Below are positions 32,202 through 59,566 of a stretch of 64,000 nt of DNA, piece after piece. The first letter of the stretch is position 1. Each line of letters starts with the position of its first letter. A model generated the notes under the pieces. That model did no database searches and had not been told where the DNA came from. It saw nothing but the letters and a program-made list of their open reading frames with translations. The position numbers and the translations under genes were made by a program. This stretch comes from a virus, in the IMG/VR virus record IMGVR_UViG_3300034104_004920, positions 33,278-97,277 of that record. One strand, 5' to 3'.

Positions 32202-33578
32202 TTATAAATTCCAAGGTATGTCGCTGCTGCTATCGTCTACTTCTTTTGTCTTTTTTGCTTTTTTGATCGTTTCTTTCTTCTCTGGAGCATCAATAGAATT
32301 AGGACTAATTCTCAAAGTTTCCCAATTTATAGGAGAAGTTATTGTAAGCTCGCTCGCACCTCTGATTTTTGTAGTGCTAAAAGTAAGTGCGGCTTTTTCT
32401 TTGTCATGGGCTTCCATTACCAGTGCAATGTCTGCTGCATCCAAGATGCCTTTGGCAAATCTTGCTTCGCCACTTGCATCTATTTGATAAGGAGAAACCA
32501 TTACTATTTCGTACTTTCGTGCCAAGTTTTTGAGTTTTTTACTGATTTCTATCTGAGGCTGCCAGTCGTATTGACTAGCACCTTCTATTACAATTTGGTT
32601 TAAGTAGTCTACAACACAAACAGTAAACTTGTCTCCAAACTTAGATTTCAGCTTTCCTAAGTGCAAATCTAAGCTGGTAATGGTAAGAGCTCTGTCGTCA
32701 ATAATAATCATTTGATTATCTTGATTCAGTGCTTTTTCTCGTACCAGTCTGTTTTCAAAGCGATAACGATCTCGAGTTCTACGAAACTCGTCGACCAAGT
32801 CATCTGCGTCTTGAAACATGCCTGCTCGTGCTTTTACCAGTTTTAACAAGTCTTCTTCAGTTAGTTTGTTTTGCTTGATGGCCTGATGGTTTACGTCGGC
32901 CAGAATACTCATGTTTCGTTCTAGTACTTCTTTTGCTGTCATTTCAATTGTGAATATAACAGCAGTGTTTCCGTTTTCGTACTGATTTACAAGAATATTA
33001 CTACTACAAATAGATTTGCCACTGCCTCTTTTGCCGCCTATCAAGATCAGTTCTTGTCGTGCAACACCACTCAGTGCTGCATCAAAACTATTATTGAATC
33101 CAAGAAACACTCTGTCTCGTGCAAGGTCTTCTGGATTTGTAAACAGCAGTATGTCTGACATATTGTAGACCCCTTCGGTTGTTAGGGTCTTGTCTTCCAG
33201 GGTCAGTACAATGCTGCTCAAATTGTCTTTTATTTCCTGACTGTCGTATACAGGTAATTTGTCGATAAACTTGTCTAATAGCTTTATGGCCTCATTTTGT
33301 GTATACTGATCAATCAAGGCATTTAGTGCAACTTCTGCACTAATGTCTTCGTTTGTTGCTAGTTTTACGGTTGCCAGCGTTCTAAGTGCTGGGCCTTCTC
33401 GTAGTGTTAGCTCTAATTCGTCGAAACTTGGAATGTTACTGTAGTTATCGTAGTACTTAGAAATAGCACTATATAAACTGCTAAAGGCTGGGTCCAAAAA
33501 GGCGAGTTTTAGCCTAGACCAAATATCCAAGTTTCTTTCTACTAGCAGTTTATTTAGTACAATAGCACTACAATCCAT
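32202..33578 (-). CDS. replicative DnaB-like helicase (T5 D6-like)
   Basis: GKRGSGKS, FTIEM, VVDY, SPYQ. Confidence 0.9.
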   Translation of the reverse strand: MDCSAIVLNKLLVERNLDIWSRLKLAFLDPAFSSLYSAISKYYDNYSNIPSFDELELTLREGPALRTLATVKLATNEDISAEVALNALIDQYTQNEAIKLLDKFIDKLPVYDSQEIKDNLSSIVLTLEDKTLTTEGVYNMSDILLFTNPEDLARDRVFLGFNNSFDAALSGVARQELILIGGKRGSGKSICSSNILVNQYENGNTAVIFTIEMTAKEVLERNMSILADVNHQAIKQNKLTEEDLLKLVKARAGMFQDADDLVDEFRRTRDRYRFENRLVREKALNQDNQMIIIDDRALTITSLDLHLGKLKSKFGDKFTVCVVDYLNQIVIEGASQYDWQPQIEISKKLKNLARKYEIVMVSPYQIDASGEARFAKGILDAADIALVMEAHDKEKAALTFSTTKIRGASELTITSPINWETLRISPNSIDAPEKKETIKKAKKTKEVDDSSSDIPWNL

Positions 33579-39953: not shown

Positions 39954-40037
39954 ATTTTATTAGGGTAGCAAGTGGTACGATAACCGTCGCAAGTGCTTAC
40001 TCGACGTACATCACATGAGCTACCCTAATAAAATGCC
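39951..40037 (-). ncRNA. stem-closed RNA cassette
   Basis: perfect 19-bp inverted repeat ggcattttattagggtagc / gctaccctaataaaatgcc. Confidence 0.45.
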
Positions 40038-40378
40038 ACGTGATTTGATAACAAGGACACGTGGCGAAAACCCTGGCTCAGCTAGTTTTTCAGGCTGCTA
40101 GAGCAAATACCTCATCGTTGGCATTTATTTTTGTTTTGCTGTTTCGGCCAGGAAACTCCCAACCCTACGGCTTTCGCATTGCCGAGCTGTCCATTTCGTT
40201 ACTCATTGCCCCGTCGAAACCAGGTCAGGCCCATCAAAAGCATACTAAGCGCACACGCAAACTCCTACAACTTCCGTCATCTAAGCTTGAGGCCTTAAGG
40301 TGTTAAGTATGCTTTTGGTGGACCTGGGCGGAATCGAACCGCCGTCCGGAACACTTTTCTCTCTACTTCATACAGCCA
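40035..40378 (-). ncRNA. ssrA: two-piece (circularly permuted) tmRNA, tag (A)ANDEVFALAA
   Basis: acceptor piece with T-arm ending CAGGUCCACCA at 40316 precedes coding piece starting GGGCCUGACCUGGUUUCGACGGGG at 40232; G3.U70; tag ORF 40122-40090. Confidence 0.92.
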
Positions 40379-40389
40379 TATTTAATTTT

Positions 40390-40662
40390 TCAGATATACT
40401 CTGAAAAATTAATCTTCATGCGTTCTGGAACGAACTCACGATAGTTATTTACCACGTCATATTCTTGGTAAATCTTCATTAGAGCAGCTTGAAACTCCTC
40501 CAGTGCTTTGTTGTACGCTGCGGCAAACTGTGCTTGTTCATCAGCCTCCAGTTCGCTAACATCAATGCAGGCCATTTTGTCAGTTGGATTGTTGAGCACA
40601 AGAGCTTCACGGTTAGAAACCTTGTTATTACGATCCACATATTCAAAGTCAATGAACTTCAA
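40390..40662 (-). CDS. hypothetical protein
   Basis: ORF behind promoter 40688-40716, TTG start with GGAG. Confidence 0.6.
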   Translation of the reverse strand: MKFIDFEYVDRNNKVSNREALVLNNPTDKMACIDVSELEADEQAQFAAAYNKALEEFQAALMKIYQEYDVVNNYREFVPERMKINFSEYI

Positions 40663-53285: not shown

Positions 53286-54281
53286 TTATTCATGATTCAT
53301 TTCAACACAGAATTTATTATGGGCCAAGTTTTTGGTCTTAGACTCCAGCATGATATCGTGTGTGTTGGAGAAGCTGTAAGCCCAACGATTACATGAACGA
53401 TTCCAGTAGTAGTCACTGTGCGCGCGCAATTGAGTTTTTGTAAACCCGTTGTTGATCAACAGATCTAGTTCTGGAAGGTCGGACTCGCTCCACACATCAC
53501 TCAACACTTCTTCTCGTGAGACTGAATAGTGGATCACAGGACGTACACCACGCCAACTATCTATCAGTTTCAACACTCGAGTATCGTCTGGTTCGATATA
53601 CTCGCCTGTACGAATCCAGTGATGATGAATGTCTAAGACCAGTGCACAATGATCTATTAATTCCAAGCTGGACTCCAACCCCCACTTGAACTCGTCGTTT
53701 TCGATTGTGATGACGTTTTTAGCCGTACTGCTCAGCTTTTTCAACACACTTTTAATACCGTCTGGGCCCAGCTGACCGCCGATGTGTACGTTGCACTTGA
53801 AGTCTTGAAAACTTTGACCATAACCCATCATTCGGATCATGTCGCAGTGGTATTCAAACTCCATGACGGAGTTTGAGACAACGCCTGGATTGTTGGATGC
53901 CAACACACAAAACTGACCAGGATGGAAACTCAGGCGAACGTCAAGAGAACGGGCTAACTCACCAATCTTTTGAAACTCCCTCACCAAGATCTGTTGGACG
54001 GATGGTTGACAATAAAACCAGAACCAGTCGTCGTGAGTGTAGGCTGGTAGTACATCGCTTGAAATCCGTAGCATTCGGTGACTTGGCGAACGGCCCCCCA
54101 CCCACTTTACCTGCTGAAGTAGTGCGTTTAGATTGTGAGTGATTAGAGCGTGCAACTTTGATTCTGCAGCCTGCTTTGTGGCGTTATTCAACCACGTAAT
54201 AGTGGTAGTCTTGATGTTCGGTACTGGTACATCCTCGAACTTGCAAGCAAAGCCTACTCGATTGATATTTTGATTGAACAT
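53286..54281 (-). CDS. uvsE: UV-damage endonuclease
   Basis: GFACK, RISSD, RLSFHPGQF, IENDE, LDIHHH, HYS, AHSD, MLESK. Confidence 0.92.
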   Translation of the reverse strand: MFNQNINRVGFACKFEDVPVPNIKTTTITWLNNATKQAAESKLHALITHNLNALLQQVKWVGGRSPSHRMLRISSDVLPAYTHDDWFWFYCQPSVQQILVREFQKIGELARSLDVRLSFHPGQFCVLASNNPGVVSNSVMEFEYHCDMIRMMGYGQSFQDFKCNVHIGGQLGPDGIKSVLKKLSSTAKNVITIENDEFKWGLESSLELIDHCALVLDIHHHWIRTGEYIEPDDTRVLKLIDSWRGVRPVIHYSVSREEVLSDVWSESDLPELDLLINNGFTKTQLRAHSDYYWNRSCNRWAYSFSNTHDIMLESKTKNLAHNKFCVEMNHE

Positions 54282-54282
54282 T

Positions 54283-54507
54283 TTAATAAGGCCTCAAATT
54301 CATCCAGTGATCTTCGTTTTCGTCTTCTGGAATACTGTCTACAATCCATCTTTCCAGTTCAGATATACGACCTCCAAGCTGGAGCGTTTGCAGCTCGATA
54401 TTGTGTTCTAGTGGACAAGGTATCAGGTCTCTAGCATTGAATATTTGTGCATTATGTACAATCAGTCTTTTTGGTTTAAAATTTAGTTTATTGAATGGCT
54501 TGCTCAT
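54283..54507 (-). CDS. hypothetical protein
   Basis: ORF behind promoter 54514-54542. Confidence 0.5.
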   Translation of the reverse strand: MSKPFNKLNFKPKRLIVHNAQIFNARDLIPCPLEHNIELQTLQLGGRISELERWIVDSIPEDENEDHWMNLRPY

Positions 54508-54513
54508 GTGTCT

Positions 54514-54542
54514 ATTATAATAGACTAAAAAACTAAAATCAA
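54514..54542 (-). promoter_or_regulatory. sigma70-type promoter
   Basis: TTGATT-17 nt-TATAAT. Confidence 0.7.
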
Positions 54543-54543
54543 G

Positions 54544-55140
54544 TCAGGGATTGTGTAAGTAAAATGCTTTGCTAAAACCGAGTGGAGTAATACTGCGTAG
54601 TTCTTTTGTTTTTTCTGATTTGCCGCCCAGCTTCATGATGGGTGAGTTACCTAAAAGAGGGTATACTGGTTTTTTGACAGGAACATTGAAAACCCCCCAC
54701 AATCCAGTACGCTTGTTATATGCCTCCGATGTTGGGTCGTCTAAGTACCCAGCATAATCACAAGGATTAAAGTAGTACGGCTTTTTTAGGCCTGGAAATA
54801 ATGTATTCAATCGTCCAACTGGATTTTCTAAACACCACCAGACCGGCTTGTAATAGTCTACAAACTCAAACACTTTGTTGACCAATGACACGCTGTAGTC
54901 TGTGCGCCCGTCCAAATCCTTCGCCTTCCAATACTGAGCACCACTGCTTGCAAAGTCTGTGCAGGGAGGAGCTGCCAATATTCCGTGTACACTTTCCAGT
55001 CCCAACTCGCTTGGTACTAGGTCTAATACGTCTATGCCCAATTTTAAGTCAAACCTGTAAACATCATAGCCGGAATTTTTGTAATAACTACTCCAGTTTC
55101 CGCTGTGGTCAAAAAGAGATATTATTGTTTTACAATCCAT
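54544..55140 (-). CDS. small DNA cytosine-C5 methyltransferase-like protein
   Basis: ISLFD.SG (motif I variant), LAAPPCTDF (IV), LENP (VI), K.T.LWG, RS.TP.GF. Confidence 0.75.
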   Translation of the reverse strand: MDCKTIISLFDHSGNWSSYYKNSGYDVYRFDLKLGIDVLDLVPSELGLESVHGILAAPPCTDFASSGAQYWKAKDLDGRTDYSVSLVNKVFEFVDYYKPVWWCLENPVGRLNTLFPGLKKPYYFNPCDYAGYLDDPTSEAYNKRTGLWGVFNVPVKKPVYPLLGNSPIMKLGGKSEKTKELRSITPLGFSKAFYLHNP

Positions 55141-55336
55141 AAAATCGCTTACACACTTTGCAGATTGGATTGGAGTCTAAATCTAATACCAATTCACTAC
55201 TCTTATACCAGATACTACAGCTGCTGCATGTTTCCAAGGTGTTCAGTGGAGCGTCTTCGACTGGTATGTTGAATTCTTTGCAGGCCTCTAAAAGGCTTAT
55301 TTTTCTGCGATAGATACTGTTTTCAAAACTGTTCAT
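55130..55336 (-). CDS. zinc-ribbon small protein
   Basis: CSSC and CKVC. Confidence 0.55.
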   Translation of the reverse strand: MNSFENSIYRRKISLLEACKEFNIPVEDAPLNTLETCSSCSIWYKSSELVLDLDSNPICKVCKRFYGL

Positions 55337-55674
55337 CTTATTTTTCTGTCGTCATTGGTATAAATATCCTTGTGTTGGATGTAATACAAAAGAAAGATTA
55401 GGTTACACACAGCGTGTGCTAAGTGGCTTTCGCCTGTTTCAGGATCCAGATCACGTCCTCGAGTCCACTCAAAGATGTGGCGCAGAGTGGCTGAAATTAC
55501 TCGTGTGTACTTAAAACCTGATCCCTCACTCCAGTTCCAGGCTGAGTACTTCTGACTACCGAAGTGTAACACTCGTACCACAGGCTCCAGGGCTTCCATT
55601 GGGATCAAACTCCAGTCCAGTTTGGAGCTGTCGTGTTTGACTGGAGATATTTGTTTTGTTAGGTTATCATTCAT
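55333..55674 (-). CDS. dATP/dGTP diphosphohydrolase-domain protein (DUF5664-like)
   Basis: K.D..K..WSL.P......V..VL.FG..KY..WNW..G.......A..RH...W..G...DPE.G.SHLAHA.CN..FL. Confidence 0.82.
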   Translation of the reverse strand: MNDNLTKQISPVKHDSSKLDWSLIPMEALEPVVRVLHFGSQKYSAWNWSEGSGFKYTRVISATLRHIFEWTRGRDLDPETGESHLAHAVCNLIFLLYYIQHKDIYTNDDRKIR

Positions 55675-55909
55675 TTATAGTAAAAATTAGAGGGCCCGGT
55701 ACTTCCCCGGGCAAAAAGAACGGTACCTTTCTTTTAAGCACGATTACCCTGTGCTTCTAGTATAAAACGCAGATATAACACAATTTCTGCAAATAACTGC
55801 CGTGCGGGTTTTGTAGAGGTTTGTGTAGTATTTCTACGCTTGCGAACGGCTTAGGGACTATTTTTTTGCTTCTTGGCTACTCGCCTGTTAGAGGTAAATG
55901 CCAAAACCT

Positions 55910-56092
55910 CTAGTGGTATTCTTTTTTGGGCTGCAGTAGTGCGGCCGTTTTGGGCTTTAAAACTTTAAACAACTCTAGTGTTAGTGCTGGAGGGTCCAGG
56001 TTCTTTTCTTGGAAGTAACGATTGTAGACTGGTAATAGTTCGTTTACAATGCATTCTTCTAAAATGACAACATAGGGTTCTTTAAAATTCAT
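55910..56092 (-). CDS. hypothetical protein
   Basis: GGAG RBS before ATG 56092. Confidence 0.45.
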   Translation of the reverse strand: MNFKEPYVVILEECIVNELLPVYNRYFQEKNLDPPALTLELFKVLKPKTAALLQPKKEYH

Positions 56093-56164
56093 GTGGAGTC
56101 TCCAACAAAACAACATTATAACATAGGGATATTGTTGTTTCAAACGCAAATTTTAAAGTGGTAT

Positions 56165-56197
56165 AAAAACAAAAAGCCCACGAAAGTGGGCTTTGTT
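56165..56197 (-). terminator. intrinsic terminator
   Basis: AAAGCCCAC-UUUC-GUGGGCUUU followed by UUGUUUUU on - strand. Confidence 0.85.
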
Positions 56198-57048
56198 GCT
56201 GGATTTCTTTCTCCAGCGAGAATCCTAGTAACAGCTAGGGTCCAGTTTAAGGTTTTTTGTTCTGATAGGTTAGACTTCCTAACAACACAGTTATCATCAC
56301 ACTGTATTGTGGTAGCAGTTTAAGCACTCTGCACAAACTCCAAGGAGTGTTCTGTTAAATCTCCCTGATATGCGCCTGTGGGATTATGCGGACCCACATT
56401 CCAGCATTATCTGTTGGTCTTAGTTAGAAGAAGGCGACTGTATTTCAAACGGTTCTTTCCGTACAGTGTTATAGCACACTGTTTCGCTCTGATGCAATAG
56501 AGACTATTGCTACTCCCAAGAAGAGGTACCGATGAAGCTGGTACGGACTAACAATACTAAAAATTGTTGCTGCTATCTTGACTAGTAGTCGTACCACTTC
56601 TTGAATGATCACGGCGTATTTTTGTGTGCCTACAAAAATACCTAGCCTGAATCAAACTCAGTGGGCTCTGAGGTTTCATCGTAACAGACAACGCCAACAG
56701 GCATTGCTGGTTTTAGTATTATTGGTTGTATTGTCTTGTTATGGACAACAATAACCCTATTGTCGTTTGCTTTTAACGATGTCTACTTATACAAGGGCAG
56801 TGGCCACTGCTGATCTTGCTTTCGTTACAGTGATAGTGACCAAGGACTTAACCCTGACCACTGGACATCAACTCGTGTAGGACGTTGATCACCGGAGCCT
56901 ACATTGATAGTGCATTAGCCTGGTGAACACAGGCTTTTTCCAAAACAATACAACTAATAATACTACTAGAGGGCTGTGGCTCGGAGTATACTTTTCCCAC
57001 AATTAAGACGTATGGCAGATTACCGCCACCGCTGTCGCCCCATATTAG
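56171..57048 (-). ncRNA. large (~880 nt) structured non-coding RNA of unknown class
   Basis: no ORF of 60 aa or more on the transcribed strand; own promoter and terminator; long-range helices and pseudoknots (see findings). Confidence 0.7.
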
Positions 57049-57054
57049 ACAACT

Positions 57055-57083
57055 ATTATAGTACTTTTAATAGTATCAAACAA
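57055..57083 (-). promoter_or_regulatory. sigma70-type promoter of the large RNA
   Basis: AAAAATTTAGAC-TTGTTT-17 nt-TATAAT. Confidence 0.75.
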
Positions 57084-57097
57084 GTCTAAATTTTTAT

Positions 57098-57196
57098 ACC
57101 ATAGTTCAACACACTAGCGGCGTGATAAGATCAGAGCCATCTCGTTTAAAGGTTGCTATTACTGAGCAAACCTCCACTAATGTGTTGAACTATGGC
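57098..57196 (-). ncRNA. shared-stem RNA cassette 4
   Basis: GCCAUAGUUCAACACAUUAG ... CUAGUGUGUUGAACUAUGGU. Confidence 0.55.
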
Positions 57197-57265
57197 GGCA
57201 GTGTTGCTGCCTCAGGAATCCCGGCCCTCAGTGCTAAGAGAACACCTACATGCCACCCTACTCTT

Positions 57266-57337
57266 ACCATAGTTCAACACACTTCCCAACCTAACCCGGG
57301 ATGCTGTTTGTACATTAGAAATGTGTTGAACTATGGC
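57266..57337 (-). ncRNA. shared-stem RNA cassette 3
   Basis: GCCAUAGUUCAACACAUUUC ... GAAGUGUGUUGAACUAUGGU. Confidence 0.55.
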
Positions 57338-57520
57338 AACGCCCCCTAAAGCGTAGCATAGTGTCTTGTACCAGGACGACGATCCCGCTGTATCTTAATA
57401 GAGGATAGTACTATTCTACAGCGGCATAGTACTATTTTTCGCCTTGTTGCACTGTACAATCTAGGGAATGATTGTACGTCGTGTGGCACCTCAGCTCGAG
57501 GGTTCATAAGAACCTCGGTG

Positions 57521-57675
57521 TTATGGTAGCAGGGTTCGAACCTGCAGTTGAATAGTCTGTCGCACTAGCTATTCTGGTCAGGTTTTGCCATGAGTGCGAG
57601 TCCTGCATCTTAATGCAGACGACTGTCCGTATAGGCTTTTCCTCGACCGTGTTCTCCGATTTTCACCATACCATA
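57521..57675 (-). ncRNA. 155-nt tRNA-like RNA with expanded anticodon domain
   Basis: UAUGGUA/UACCAUA acceptor, D-arm, T-arm GCAGG-UUCGAAC-CCUGC; no anticodon loop. Confidence 0.7.
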
Positions 57676-57856
57676 GTTGTCCAGACCCGAGTGGAGACGT
57701 CTGAACCTTTCTATCTCATTCCACCATTAGACCCGTTAACTAGAGGTCAGCTAGATCCAAGATAAAGTGGAGTACTTGGACGTTTGTGTTGATCCACTAT
57801 CAGACCATTTGAACCTAGCGGTCGGCTAGGGTTTGAGTACAAGAGTTATGATTTTT

Positions 57857-57967: not shown

Positions 57968-58062
57968 GACCCTTTGTAGGCAGGATTCGAACCTGCAAGT
58001 GGCTTCTACCACCACCGGCCCCAATGCGGGCCTATGTTTACCAGTTTCCATCACTACGGGTC
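57967..58062 (-). ncRNA. tRNA-like RNA (class II scaffold) lacking a canonical anticodon loop
   Basis: D-arm, variable arm, T-arm GCAGG-UUCGAAU-CCUGC; acceptor GACCC-GUAG / CUAC-AAA-GGGUC. Confidence 0.65.
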
Positions 58063-58492: not shown

Positions 58493-58568
58493 TGGTACCT
58501 CTAGGGGGAGTCGAACCCCTCGTTTCCGCCTTGAAAGGGCAGCGTCCTAACCATTAGACGATAGAGGC
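58493..58568 (-). tRNA. tRNA-Glu(UUC)
   Basis: CU-UUC-AA, CCA. Confidence 0.92.
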
Positions 58569-58872
58569 AAAGTTGTTGAGTTTATATTGTTCAACAGAGG
58601 ATCTATTATACAGGGTTAACCATTTCAAAACAACTTCAAAATTGTTAACCCTGTACAACAGGGGCTGAAACTATAACCAAACAGAGCAACGACTTCTGCT
58701 GGAGTATAGCTTGTCGAAGCTCTACAGTACGCTAATGACTTTATGACTATAACCCAAGTTGTTATCTTGTAGTCAGTCATAATGGGCCTTCGTCGAACAG
58801 CAGTTACTTCTATCAACAGAACACATATTATGACACAAAAAAGCACTCAAAACAAGTTCAAAATTGTTCGTT

Positions 58873-59115
58873 TTATGCTCTGCGATTCCACTTGTCAATG
58901 CATTCTTCACGAGTGTCGGCATTGACTTGTGCGTCACATCCGCCACTTGTTTCTACGCAAAACATGCTATAACAACGCTGTTCTGGAGGAACAACTAGAG
59001 CACTGCAATACGACTTGAGTCCGCTCTTTCTAAGCACCCAGCCGATGCCGTTAGGATAAATGGTGTCTGGATCGCTCATGTCTACTTCATGGCCGCAAAA
59101 AGGACAGGGTTTCAT
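58873..59115 (-). CDS. Lar-like (restriction alleviation family) zinc-finger protein
   Basis: KPCPFCG ... C.....GC ... I.KWNRRA. Confidence 0.65.
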   Translation of the reverse strand: MKPCPFCGHEVDMSDPDTIYPNGIGWVLRKSGLKSYCSALVVPPEQRCYSMFCVETSGGCDAQVNADTREECIDKWNRRA

Positions 59116-59342
59116 TGTGTTAGTCCAAAATGTTTTTTGATTGCCACTTGAGTTACTGATGCTGGAACATCATCGCCCATATAAGTATTATTACGAATTG
59201 CGTTATGGGATTCTAGCTGAATGATATCTACGCACTCCCGAACAATCAACTTAGTTAACCTTTCAGAATCCTCAATATTCCAACGCATATTTTCGCTTTC
59301 AGATACGACCTTATTGTGAAGTTCTTTAATCCTTTCGTTCAT
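59112..59342 (-). CDS. 'MNERIKEL' paralog family protein
   Basis: MNERIKEL...LIVREC...IKKHFG. Confidence 0.7.
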   Translation of the reverse strand: MNERIKELHNKVVSESENMRWNIEDSERLTKLIVRECVDIIQLESHNAIRNNTYMGDDVPASVTQVAIKKHFGLTQ

Positions 59343-59566
59343 TCTTCAACTCCGAAATGTTTTCTAATCAAGTCTGATGATTGGTATGGTTCCGCTTTGT
59401 TAGCAATACCCGCACATTCTCCAACAATCAACTCGGCGAACTTTTCTTCAAACTTAACTTCAAGTTCATTATGTTCCATGTAATAGCCGTAATGCTTACA
59501 GTCTGCCACATAGTCACGAGCATATTGCCTAGCCTGATCAGCAAGTTCACGAATTCGTTTATTCAT
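59339..59566 (-). CDS. 'MNERIKEL' paralog family protein
   Basis: MNKRIRELA...EKFAELIVGECA...IRKHFGVEE. Confidence 0.7.
   Translation of the reverse strand: MNKRIRELADQARQYARDYVADCKHYGYYMEHNELEVKFEEKFAELIVGECAGIANKAEPYQSSDLIRKHFGVEE

Follow-up and report, generated by a model that had tools for sequence, protein, structure and literature searches.

The minus strand of a 64,000-nucleotide stretch of viral DNA (IMG/VR virus record IMGVR_UViG_3300034104_004920, positions 33,278 to 97,277; hereafter the window) carries a unit, set in an island of transfer RNA (tRNA) genes, that very probably encodes a real, expressed and modular non-coding RNA (ncRNA) of a new family not found in Rfam, a judgement that takes in the anatomy of the RNA, both shown and inferred, and not its mode of action. 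An earlier reading of the window, made from the letters without database searches (the sequence-only reading), had proposed a discrete structured ncRNA beside a tRNA island, and homologues, covariation, strand asymmetry and metatranscriptome contigs all argue for one. It had also pictured a single ornate globule with crossing long-range helices, a picture that the evidence does not support, since only one of its four long-range helices is conserved and the family is modular. Comparison of aligned sequences shows two of the modules, a 5' module termed M1 and a 3' core, to be under strong purifying and structural selection. The unit and these two modules are placed as follows.

57083-56165, minus strand: the ncRNA unit, consisting of a promoter, about 880 nucleotides (nt) without a gene and a strong intrinsic terminator.
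56971-57040, minus strand: M1, a three-way junction of about 75 nt, drawn from covariation, covariance model R1 and 66 viral loci.
56378-56462, minus strand: the conserved 3' core of about 85 nt, drawn from an nhmmer match (E = 2.9e-15) and the pairs of alignment A3.

A DNA search of 24 related phage records, picked via their DNA polymerase, matched nt 9-85 of the RNA and nothing else, and it was this restricted match that led to the discovery of M1, aligning the matches revealing an invariant motif directly after an invariant TATAAT. A scan of IMG/VR with the pattern CTTAATTGTGG-N3-25-CCGAGCCACAGCCC found the M1 motif at 66 viral loci, in most of which the next 0.8-1.6 kb are without a plausible open reading frame (ORF), often with a terminator 650-1300 nt downstream. 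Among 185,579 species genomes of bacteria and archaea the motif is nearly absent, the sole match being one 2.9-kb contig of a metagenome-assembled genome. M1 is built of P1 (GGG/CCC), P2 (GAC/GUC), a variable hairpin (UGGCGG/CUGCCA), the junction UUAAUU and an invariant P3 (UUGUGG/CCACAG), which surrounds a GRAA...CCGAG loop that in some members holds an extra covarying hairpin. In alignment A2, with 43 distinct sequences, 91.7% of cells are paired against 33-47% when the partners are slid, and double changes occupy 71 cells against 22 +/- 4 in shuffles (none of 500 reaching the observed value), P2 for example occurring as the compensatory variants GUC/GAC, GGAA/UUCC and GAAC/GUUC. The covariance model made from M1 finds one strong copy in every locus, and as model R1 it scores 78.2 bits at 56971-57040, the sole copy in the window, with TATAAT ending 14 nt before it. 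Some relatives carry, 150-220 nt after M1, a weaker full-length paralogue, M2 (listed below), and because the P3 of M2 differs in sequence (GCGAC/GUUGC or GCAAC/GUUGC), this helix gains the covariation that it lacks in M1 alone. A -10-like box lies 9-22 nt ahead of M1 in most family members, which argues that M1 is the 5' end of the transcript. The unpaired nucleotides of M1 are invariant among phages whose polymerases are only about 70% identical, and their number points to a possible conserved partner or tertiary fold.

The 3' core was first seen when the related locus L100 was aligned to the whole window RNA with nhmmer. Its first hairpin, H0 (56462-56449), has the stem ACGG/CCGU and an AAAGAA loop that is invariant; then come an unpaired, conserved linker of about 20 nt (56445-56423; AAAUACAG...UCUAAC) and two further hairpins, H1 (56417-56401) and H2 (56397-56378; GUGGG/CCCAC). 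In alignment A3, with 20 sequences, 96.2% of the paired cells can pair, compared with 37-47% in slid controls, and 11 of the 13 pairs show double changes (0/500 shuffles), so that the ncRNA call is borne out by strong covariation in both modules. A scan with the linker motif, independent of M1, places the core in 43 viral loci, and in at least 33 of these M1 precedes it on the same strand. In L003, a 97%-identical copy of the stretch, not one substitution relative to the window occurs from RNA position 557 through the terminator.

The strand can be read from the same alignments, G.U pairs outnumbering A.C mismatches by 57:12 in M1 and 26:6 in the core, which identifies the minus strand as the RNA, in agreement with the G.U argument of the sequence-only reading. 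Thermodynamics alone cannot choose the strand, since the RNA has a minimum free energy (MFE) of -278 kcal/mol with z = -6.4 against shuffles and the opposite strand also reaches z = -5.2. The window and L003 differ at about 35 positions, among which three pairs are double compensatory changes in local hairpins, 56818/56792 and 56810/56797 within the variable domain described below and 56507/56497, an A-U to G-C change, in the middle region. As for expression, six lake metatranscriptome runs contain about a third of the sequence words of the stretch, and in four runs from four studies assembled RNA contigs of 187-739 nt, at depths of 17-56, cover 56259-57008, the coverage leaving out 57009-57048 and 56165-56258. 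Flanking coding DNA (54000-56200 and 58600-59500) has a depth of 0-3 in the same four runs, a contrast that argues for a stable, abundant RNA rather than DNA carry-over.

The signals that delimit the unit were found where the sequence-only reading had put them. The sigma-70-type promoter at 57055-57083 matches the -35 consensus at only three of six bases, which is why an automated promoter scan missed it; its TATAAT is invariant across seven aligned related loci, in which the flanks differ, and from the position of the promoter the transcript would start near 57048. The terminator, proposed at about 56165-56197, has a stem of 9 base pairs (bp), five of them G-C, followed by a U tract; the L100 unit also closes with a terminator hairpin, with a different stem sequence. 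No substantial ORF lies between the two signals, the longest on either strand within 56150-57120 having 49 amino acids (aa). Across the family the order of modules is constant, namely -10 box, M1, long-helix domain, M2, tRNA-Glu, hammerhead and core. The other features, from 5' to 3' along the transcript and then in relatives, are these.

57055-57083, minus strand: sigma-70-type promoter, with -35 box TTGTTT (57083-57078), 17-nt spacer and -10 box TATAAT (57060-57055).
56714-56965, minus strand: stem-closed variable domain, closed by a 24/25-bp AU-rich helix of 56965-56941 with 56738-56714.
56694-56710, minus strand: local hairpin CCAGCA-AUGCC-UGUUGG, 6 bp in the hairpin scan, previously taken for a long-range arm.
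56639-56689, minus strand: putative hammerhead relic, at the position homologous to the complete hammerheads of L100, L136, L114, L127 and L162.
56463-56638, minus strand: middle region of local hairpins, from MFE and constrained folds, poorly conserved outside the lineage.
56195-56377, minus strand: 3' tail of local hairpins, from folds, partly alignable with L100 in a full-length nhmmer alignment.
56165-56194, minus strand: intrinsic terminator, with stem AAAGCCCAC/GUGGGCUUU (56194-56173), loop UUUC and then the U tract.
L122:256-325, L101:4184-4253 and L102:8359-8430, in relatives: M2, a diverged second M1.

All four long-range complementarities and the pseudoknot strands listed in the sequence-only reading are present at the coordinates it gave, and their fates differ. 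The 19/20-bp helix of 56964-56945 with 56734-56715 proved to be a family feature, its full extent being 24/25 bp; most relatives have an equivalent helix of 17-25 bp and unrelated sequence, 0-8 nt after M1 and usually enclosing about 100 nt, so that the helix exceeds chance. In the window it encloses a payload of about 200 nt of local hairpins, examples being 56903-56876 and 56818-56792. The proposed crossing duplex of 56710-56694 with 56417-56401 was rejected: both arms are local hairpins, the second being the H1 that covaries across the family, and an RNA-contig variant has six bases changed in H1 with the other arm unchanged, which strengthens the local hairpin from -1.8 to -4.4 kcal/mol and breaks the long-range duplex, whose energy goes from -19.5 to -5.2 kcal/mol. 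A third proposal, pairing GGGGCGAC (57041-57034) with GUCGCCUU (56438-56431), competes with the conserved fold of M1 at P1 and P2 and is at best lineage-specific, its energy of -13.7 kcal/mol in the window falling to between -4.5 and -10.9 in other members, among which pairing of the M1 5' end with the core linker has no conserved register. For the fourth, 56723-56711 with 56562-56550, there are few differences from L003, and they point both ways. The H-type pseudoknot at about 56903-56866 is not supported as a whole, with only stem 1 changing in compensatory fashion from UGUAGG/CCUACA to UGCCAG/CUGGUA in RNA-contig variants; the loop strand of stem 2 is changed without compensation, while a nested alternative persists.

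Between the two conserved modules, most relatives carry a complete hammerhead, a predicted self-cleaving ribozyme. About 44 of the 66 loci have the arrangement CUGAUGAG-stem-CGAAAC with a covarying stem II, and a strict search (core, three stems, A15.1-U16.1 and a non-G cleavage nucleotide) finds 16 distinct complete hammerheads, whose stems I, II and III all covary and which are predicted to cut the transcript in two in most relatives. Rfam models miss these ribozymes (cmscan at E<=1 on the L107 and L100 units), probably because of inserts of 40-80 nt in stem II or III. A subgroup (L100, L136, L114, L127 and L162) is set apart by an additional U following A9, ahead of stem II, and by a stem II insert of 40-80 nt holding GACCCUAAAC...GUUUA. 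Copies of GACCCUAAAC and of its complement GUUUAGGGUC turn up in L107, L139, L114 and other relatives, within the RNA unit, as a long-range helix downstream of the 3' core and around terminators, and at eight places in the window genome, none of them in the RNA. The homologous site of the window retains GAAAC, stem III (ACCU.AG/CUAGGU) and the GUA site but has lost stem II entirely and the CUGAUGA box for the most part, and the window RNA has no CUGANGA-stem II-GAAA arrangement; alignment by eye suggests a decayed hammerhead. Also lying between M1 and the hammerhead or core is an embedded tRNA, found in 18 of 53 unique loci, always tRNA-Glu(UUC) and confirmed by Rfam in L111 and L122. The tRNA-Glu(UUC) of the window phage is not inside the unit; it lies at 58493-58568, 1.45 kb upstream.

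The neighbourhood is a tRNA island of 23 tRNAs and a permuted transfer-messenger RNA (tmRNA), all on the minus strand, with tRNA-Tyr, tRNA-Leu and tRNA-Glu 1.3-1.5 kb upstream of the unit, and the stretch is single-copy within its 97-kb IMG/VR virus record. The tmRNA (40016-40425) is of betaproteobacterial type with the tag ANDEVFALAA, and a related one occurs in L122; its type is a hint to the host group. At 57972-58060 ARAGORN calls a tRNA-like gene with an abnormal 2-nt anticodon. Upstream of the promoter, at 57100-57340, repeats of the 18-nt GUGUGUUGAACUAUGGUA and of its complement fold into long hairpins, giving spurious Rfam matches to microRNA precursors, and L003 is without about 160 nt here (window 57160-57320; L003:664-665), a single stem-closed cassette, which argues that island cassettes are gained and lost between strains. 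A second non-coding block upstream, 57277-57832, has an RNA-contig depth of 31-100, equal to or above that of the main RNA, and four lake RNA runs each hold a contig joining 57518 to 57678, skipping 159 nt (57519-57677) that the sequence-only reading had noted as a tRNA-like RNA. In one run the joined form occurs at depth 22 beside the unjoined form at depth 59, and the skip reflects a cassette indel between strains or else an excision at the RNA level. G001 (IMGVR_UViG_3300031951_000074), a contig of 91.6 kb from a 99%-related phage, stops precisely at the RNA terminator (window about 56171), which suggests that assemblies break in the strain-variable RNA region. As for the carrier, the phage polymerase shares 49% identity with its counterparts in T5-like phages, and the family belongs to an uncultured clade of freshwater T5-like phages, of which the window phage is a distant T5 relative; related environmental genomes measure 97-128 kb, several with direct terminal repeats. 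Anchoring on the downstream dGTP/dATP diphosphohydrolase gene recovered only two near-identical loci and distant, non-syntenic ones without the gap or tRNAs.

The sequence-only reading had left open whether the RNA is a divergent GOLLD or ROOL member or a new class, and comparison with known families points to a separate family of the same general kind. At the Rfam gathering score no family matches the ncRNA unit in the window; a permissive cmscan (E<=10) of 55800-57400 gives terminator look-alikes only, and an all-family cmscan (E<=1) of the L107 and L100 units gives terminator-like noise only. The GOLLD and ROOL models, tested directly, both fail. For GOLLD (RF02032, cut-off 150 bits), a search of the window's genome G000 and four relatives rated 100% complete by CheckV gave best scores of 3.8 bits in G000 and 4.4 bits in one relative, both at unrelated places; for ROOL (RF03087, cut-off 99.1 bits), 25 records (G000 and 24 relatives) gave no match at E<=1, with control genomes also silent and sensitivity thus unproven. 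Likeness to GOLLD, a phage RNA of >800 nt and unknown function that was first seen in lake metagenomes, lies by tRNA islands and is abundant in infection, with two domains joined by a variable linker able to hold tRNAs (10.1101/2024.12.08.627333), is one of setting: about 880 nt, an island of 23 tRNAs and a tmRNA, and 18 of 53 loci whose unit harbours a tRNA-Glu, a resemblance in kind that is not family-specific. GOLLD, in contrast, is best conserved in a large 3' region and the new family in the small 5' module M1, a ranking to be read with the caution that M1 is present in all 66 loci partly by construction, the loci having been found via M1, and that the core scan shows linkage, not ranking. 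Most members of the new family, unlike GOLLD, also have a hammerhead between their halves, and the embedded tRNA is always tRNA-Glu. ROOL is likewise a large structured RNA of phages and prophages, near tRNA islands, very abundant and of unknown function; its secondary structure is unrelated, and its model matches neither the window nor the 25 phage records.

Other comparisons concern parts of the unit or its setting. The T4 species 1 and 2 RNAs are small stable RNAs of unknown function that share their transcripts with phage tRNA clusters and owe their maturation to host ribonucleases (RNases). Such stable RNAs of the T4 and T5 tRNA regions are similar in setting but much shorter, and the searches showed no kinship in sequence: a blastn query with the region matched none of 50,697 phage records, and the M1 model matched nothing in the cultured T5-like phages BF23, AAS21 and KKP_3711. 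Hammerheads inside long phage transcripts are known from prophages (Perreault et al. 2011, PMC3088659), and the relatives' complete hammerheads resemble them in having an open stem I within such a transcript; here, however, the ribozyme sits in a non-coding unit, flanked by two conserved RNA modules and with tRNA-Glu alongside, instead of separating protein genes. Of the 10,006 viral structured-RNA candidates in a survey of IMG/VR, 8,495 are unnamed (PMC10690425), and the candidates may include pieces of the family led by M1.

How the parts of such an RNA belong together can be read in several ways. The 880-nt species may be a short-lived precursor, in effect an operon of small stable RNAs (M1, a payload from the 25-bp stem, and the core) whose maturation would fall to RNase III, RNase P/Z and, among relatives, the hammerhead, a reading that is possible though doubtful. 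Relatives embed tRNA-Glu and a hammerhead, some have the tandem M1-like M2, and stem-closed cassettes vary by strain (57160-57320, absent from L003, and the joint skipping 57519-57677); moreover, the helix of 17-25 bp is long enough for RNase III, satisfying the substrate length requirement of the E. coli enzyme. Against this, the RNA contigs pass without a break through each strand of the long helix, although processing could go unseen in contigs, and the window unit has neither an internal tRNA nor an active ribozyme. Another reading is an RNA with a global tertiary fold in which all of the roughly 880 nt act together, perhaps as a GOLLD- or ROOL-like multimer, the hammerhead and tRNA of relatives being decorations in a linker. 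In its favour, nothing is predicted to cut the window RNA, single RNA contigs span 56259-56987, M1 and the core share a strand in at least 33 of 43 loci in fixed order, and GOLLD likewise has two domains and a variable linker (10.1101/2024.12.08.627333). Such an architecture is nonetheless unlikely, because no long-range pairing between M1 and the core is conserved, three of the four long-range helices first proposed fail or lack clear support, M1 closes on itself and in most relatives a complete hammerhead divides the halves.

A divergent member of GOLLD or ROOL, for which one could cite size class, phage origin, lakes, the nearby tRNA island and the tRNA that some members hold in their variable middle, is highly improbable given that the curated models and the all-family cmscans (window and two relatives' units, E<=1-10) yield nothing and that conservation peaks in the 5' module here and in the 3' region in GOLLD. 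M1 could instead be a cis-acting leader that modifies RNA polymerase, like the put RNA of HK022, or stabilizes the transcript, with the rest as structured spacer; its constant place within about 10-20 nt of the -10 box, its invariant unpaired nucleotides across phages with polymerases about 70% identical, and a downstream RNA rich in hairpins able to stall or terminate polymerase all fit. This is improbable too, as the 3' core is independently conserved with covariation, the unit stops at a strong terminator with no gene for read-through, and M2 copies lie far from the promoter. A coding region of small ORFs, or decayed non-functional DNA, is barely credible: ORFs of 33-49 aa do exist on both strands, but one-base indels between the window and L003 fall within them (56504 in ORF 56469-56612) and would shift the frame, conservation follows base-pairing and not codons, and the ORF patterns of relatives are unrelated, while high RNA depth and invariant motifs argue against decay. 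Plain spacer was rejected as well.

With a modular ncRNA of a new family as the preferred reading, a course of events can be proposed. Host-type RNA polymerase would transcribe the unit of about 880 nt between the promoter and terminator signals. In most relatives, cleavage would leave two fragments, a 5' one that carries M1, with or without tRNA-Glu, and a cyclic phosphate at its end, and a 3' one that begins with a 5'-OH and holds the core, and in about a third of them tRNA-Glu would be matured out; if the transcript of relatives thus cuts itself and releases the tRNA, the conserved functions would sit in M1 and the core. In the window phage, where the ribozyme appears decayed and tRNA-Glu lies 1.45 kb upstream, M1 and the core would remain parts of one molecule, unless the 25-bp helix is cleaved by host RNase III. 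As to what they do, we tentatively suggest, by analogy and with no more weight than the precursor reading has, a stable and abundant tRNA-island RNA with a GOLLD- or ROOL-like role on the host translation or RNA-processing machinery: the invariant unpaired nucleotides would bind a conserved partner in that machinery, and M1 would also cap and protect the 5' end of the transcript. A bolder version, which we consider quite unlikely, would make this a third class of giant phage RNA beside GOLLD and ROOL, one in two pieces, with the hammerhead splitting an M1 piece, sometimes with tethered tRNA-Glu, from a core piece, both acting on a target in host translation or RNA repair, and with the window phage as a natural uncut fusion. 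On this view M1 or the core might also be a functional RNA fold of a new type, ligand- or protein-binding or catalytic.

Several observations weigh against this account. The full-length body of the window RNA aligns by nhmmer only with L100, L136 and the near-identical twin L003, leaving most of the roughly 880 nt without direct comparative support, and the 3' core lies within 1.6 kb in only 24 of 67 M1 loci (nhmmer), which makes the family heterogeneous. From the assembled contigs one can read no strand, no transcript ends and no processing, and contig depth gauges expression only roughly. An antisense-target search with the linker returned only a 12-mer complement (0.2 expected by chance) in an unrelated ORF, and the statement of function is drawn purely by analogy.

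Beside tRNA islands, GOLLD and ROOL have been the only two curated families of large structured phage RNAs, and their function is unknown. A new and separate family adds to them one with good comparative support and with evidence for high expression in lakes, as well as a new context for the hammerhead, inside an ncRNA unit and overlooked by current Rfam models. The conserved parts are small, about 75 and 85 nt, and thus fit for structure work and pull-downs, and the ribozyme is amenable to test-tube assay. The constant link to tRNA-Glu is a concrete lead on function. Finally, the family holds its own natural experiments, its members differing in whether they have an active hammerhead, a tethered tRNA-Glu or a stem-closed insert, and such variants make the function of these RNAs easier to approach.

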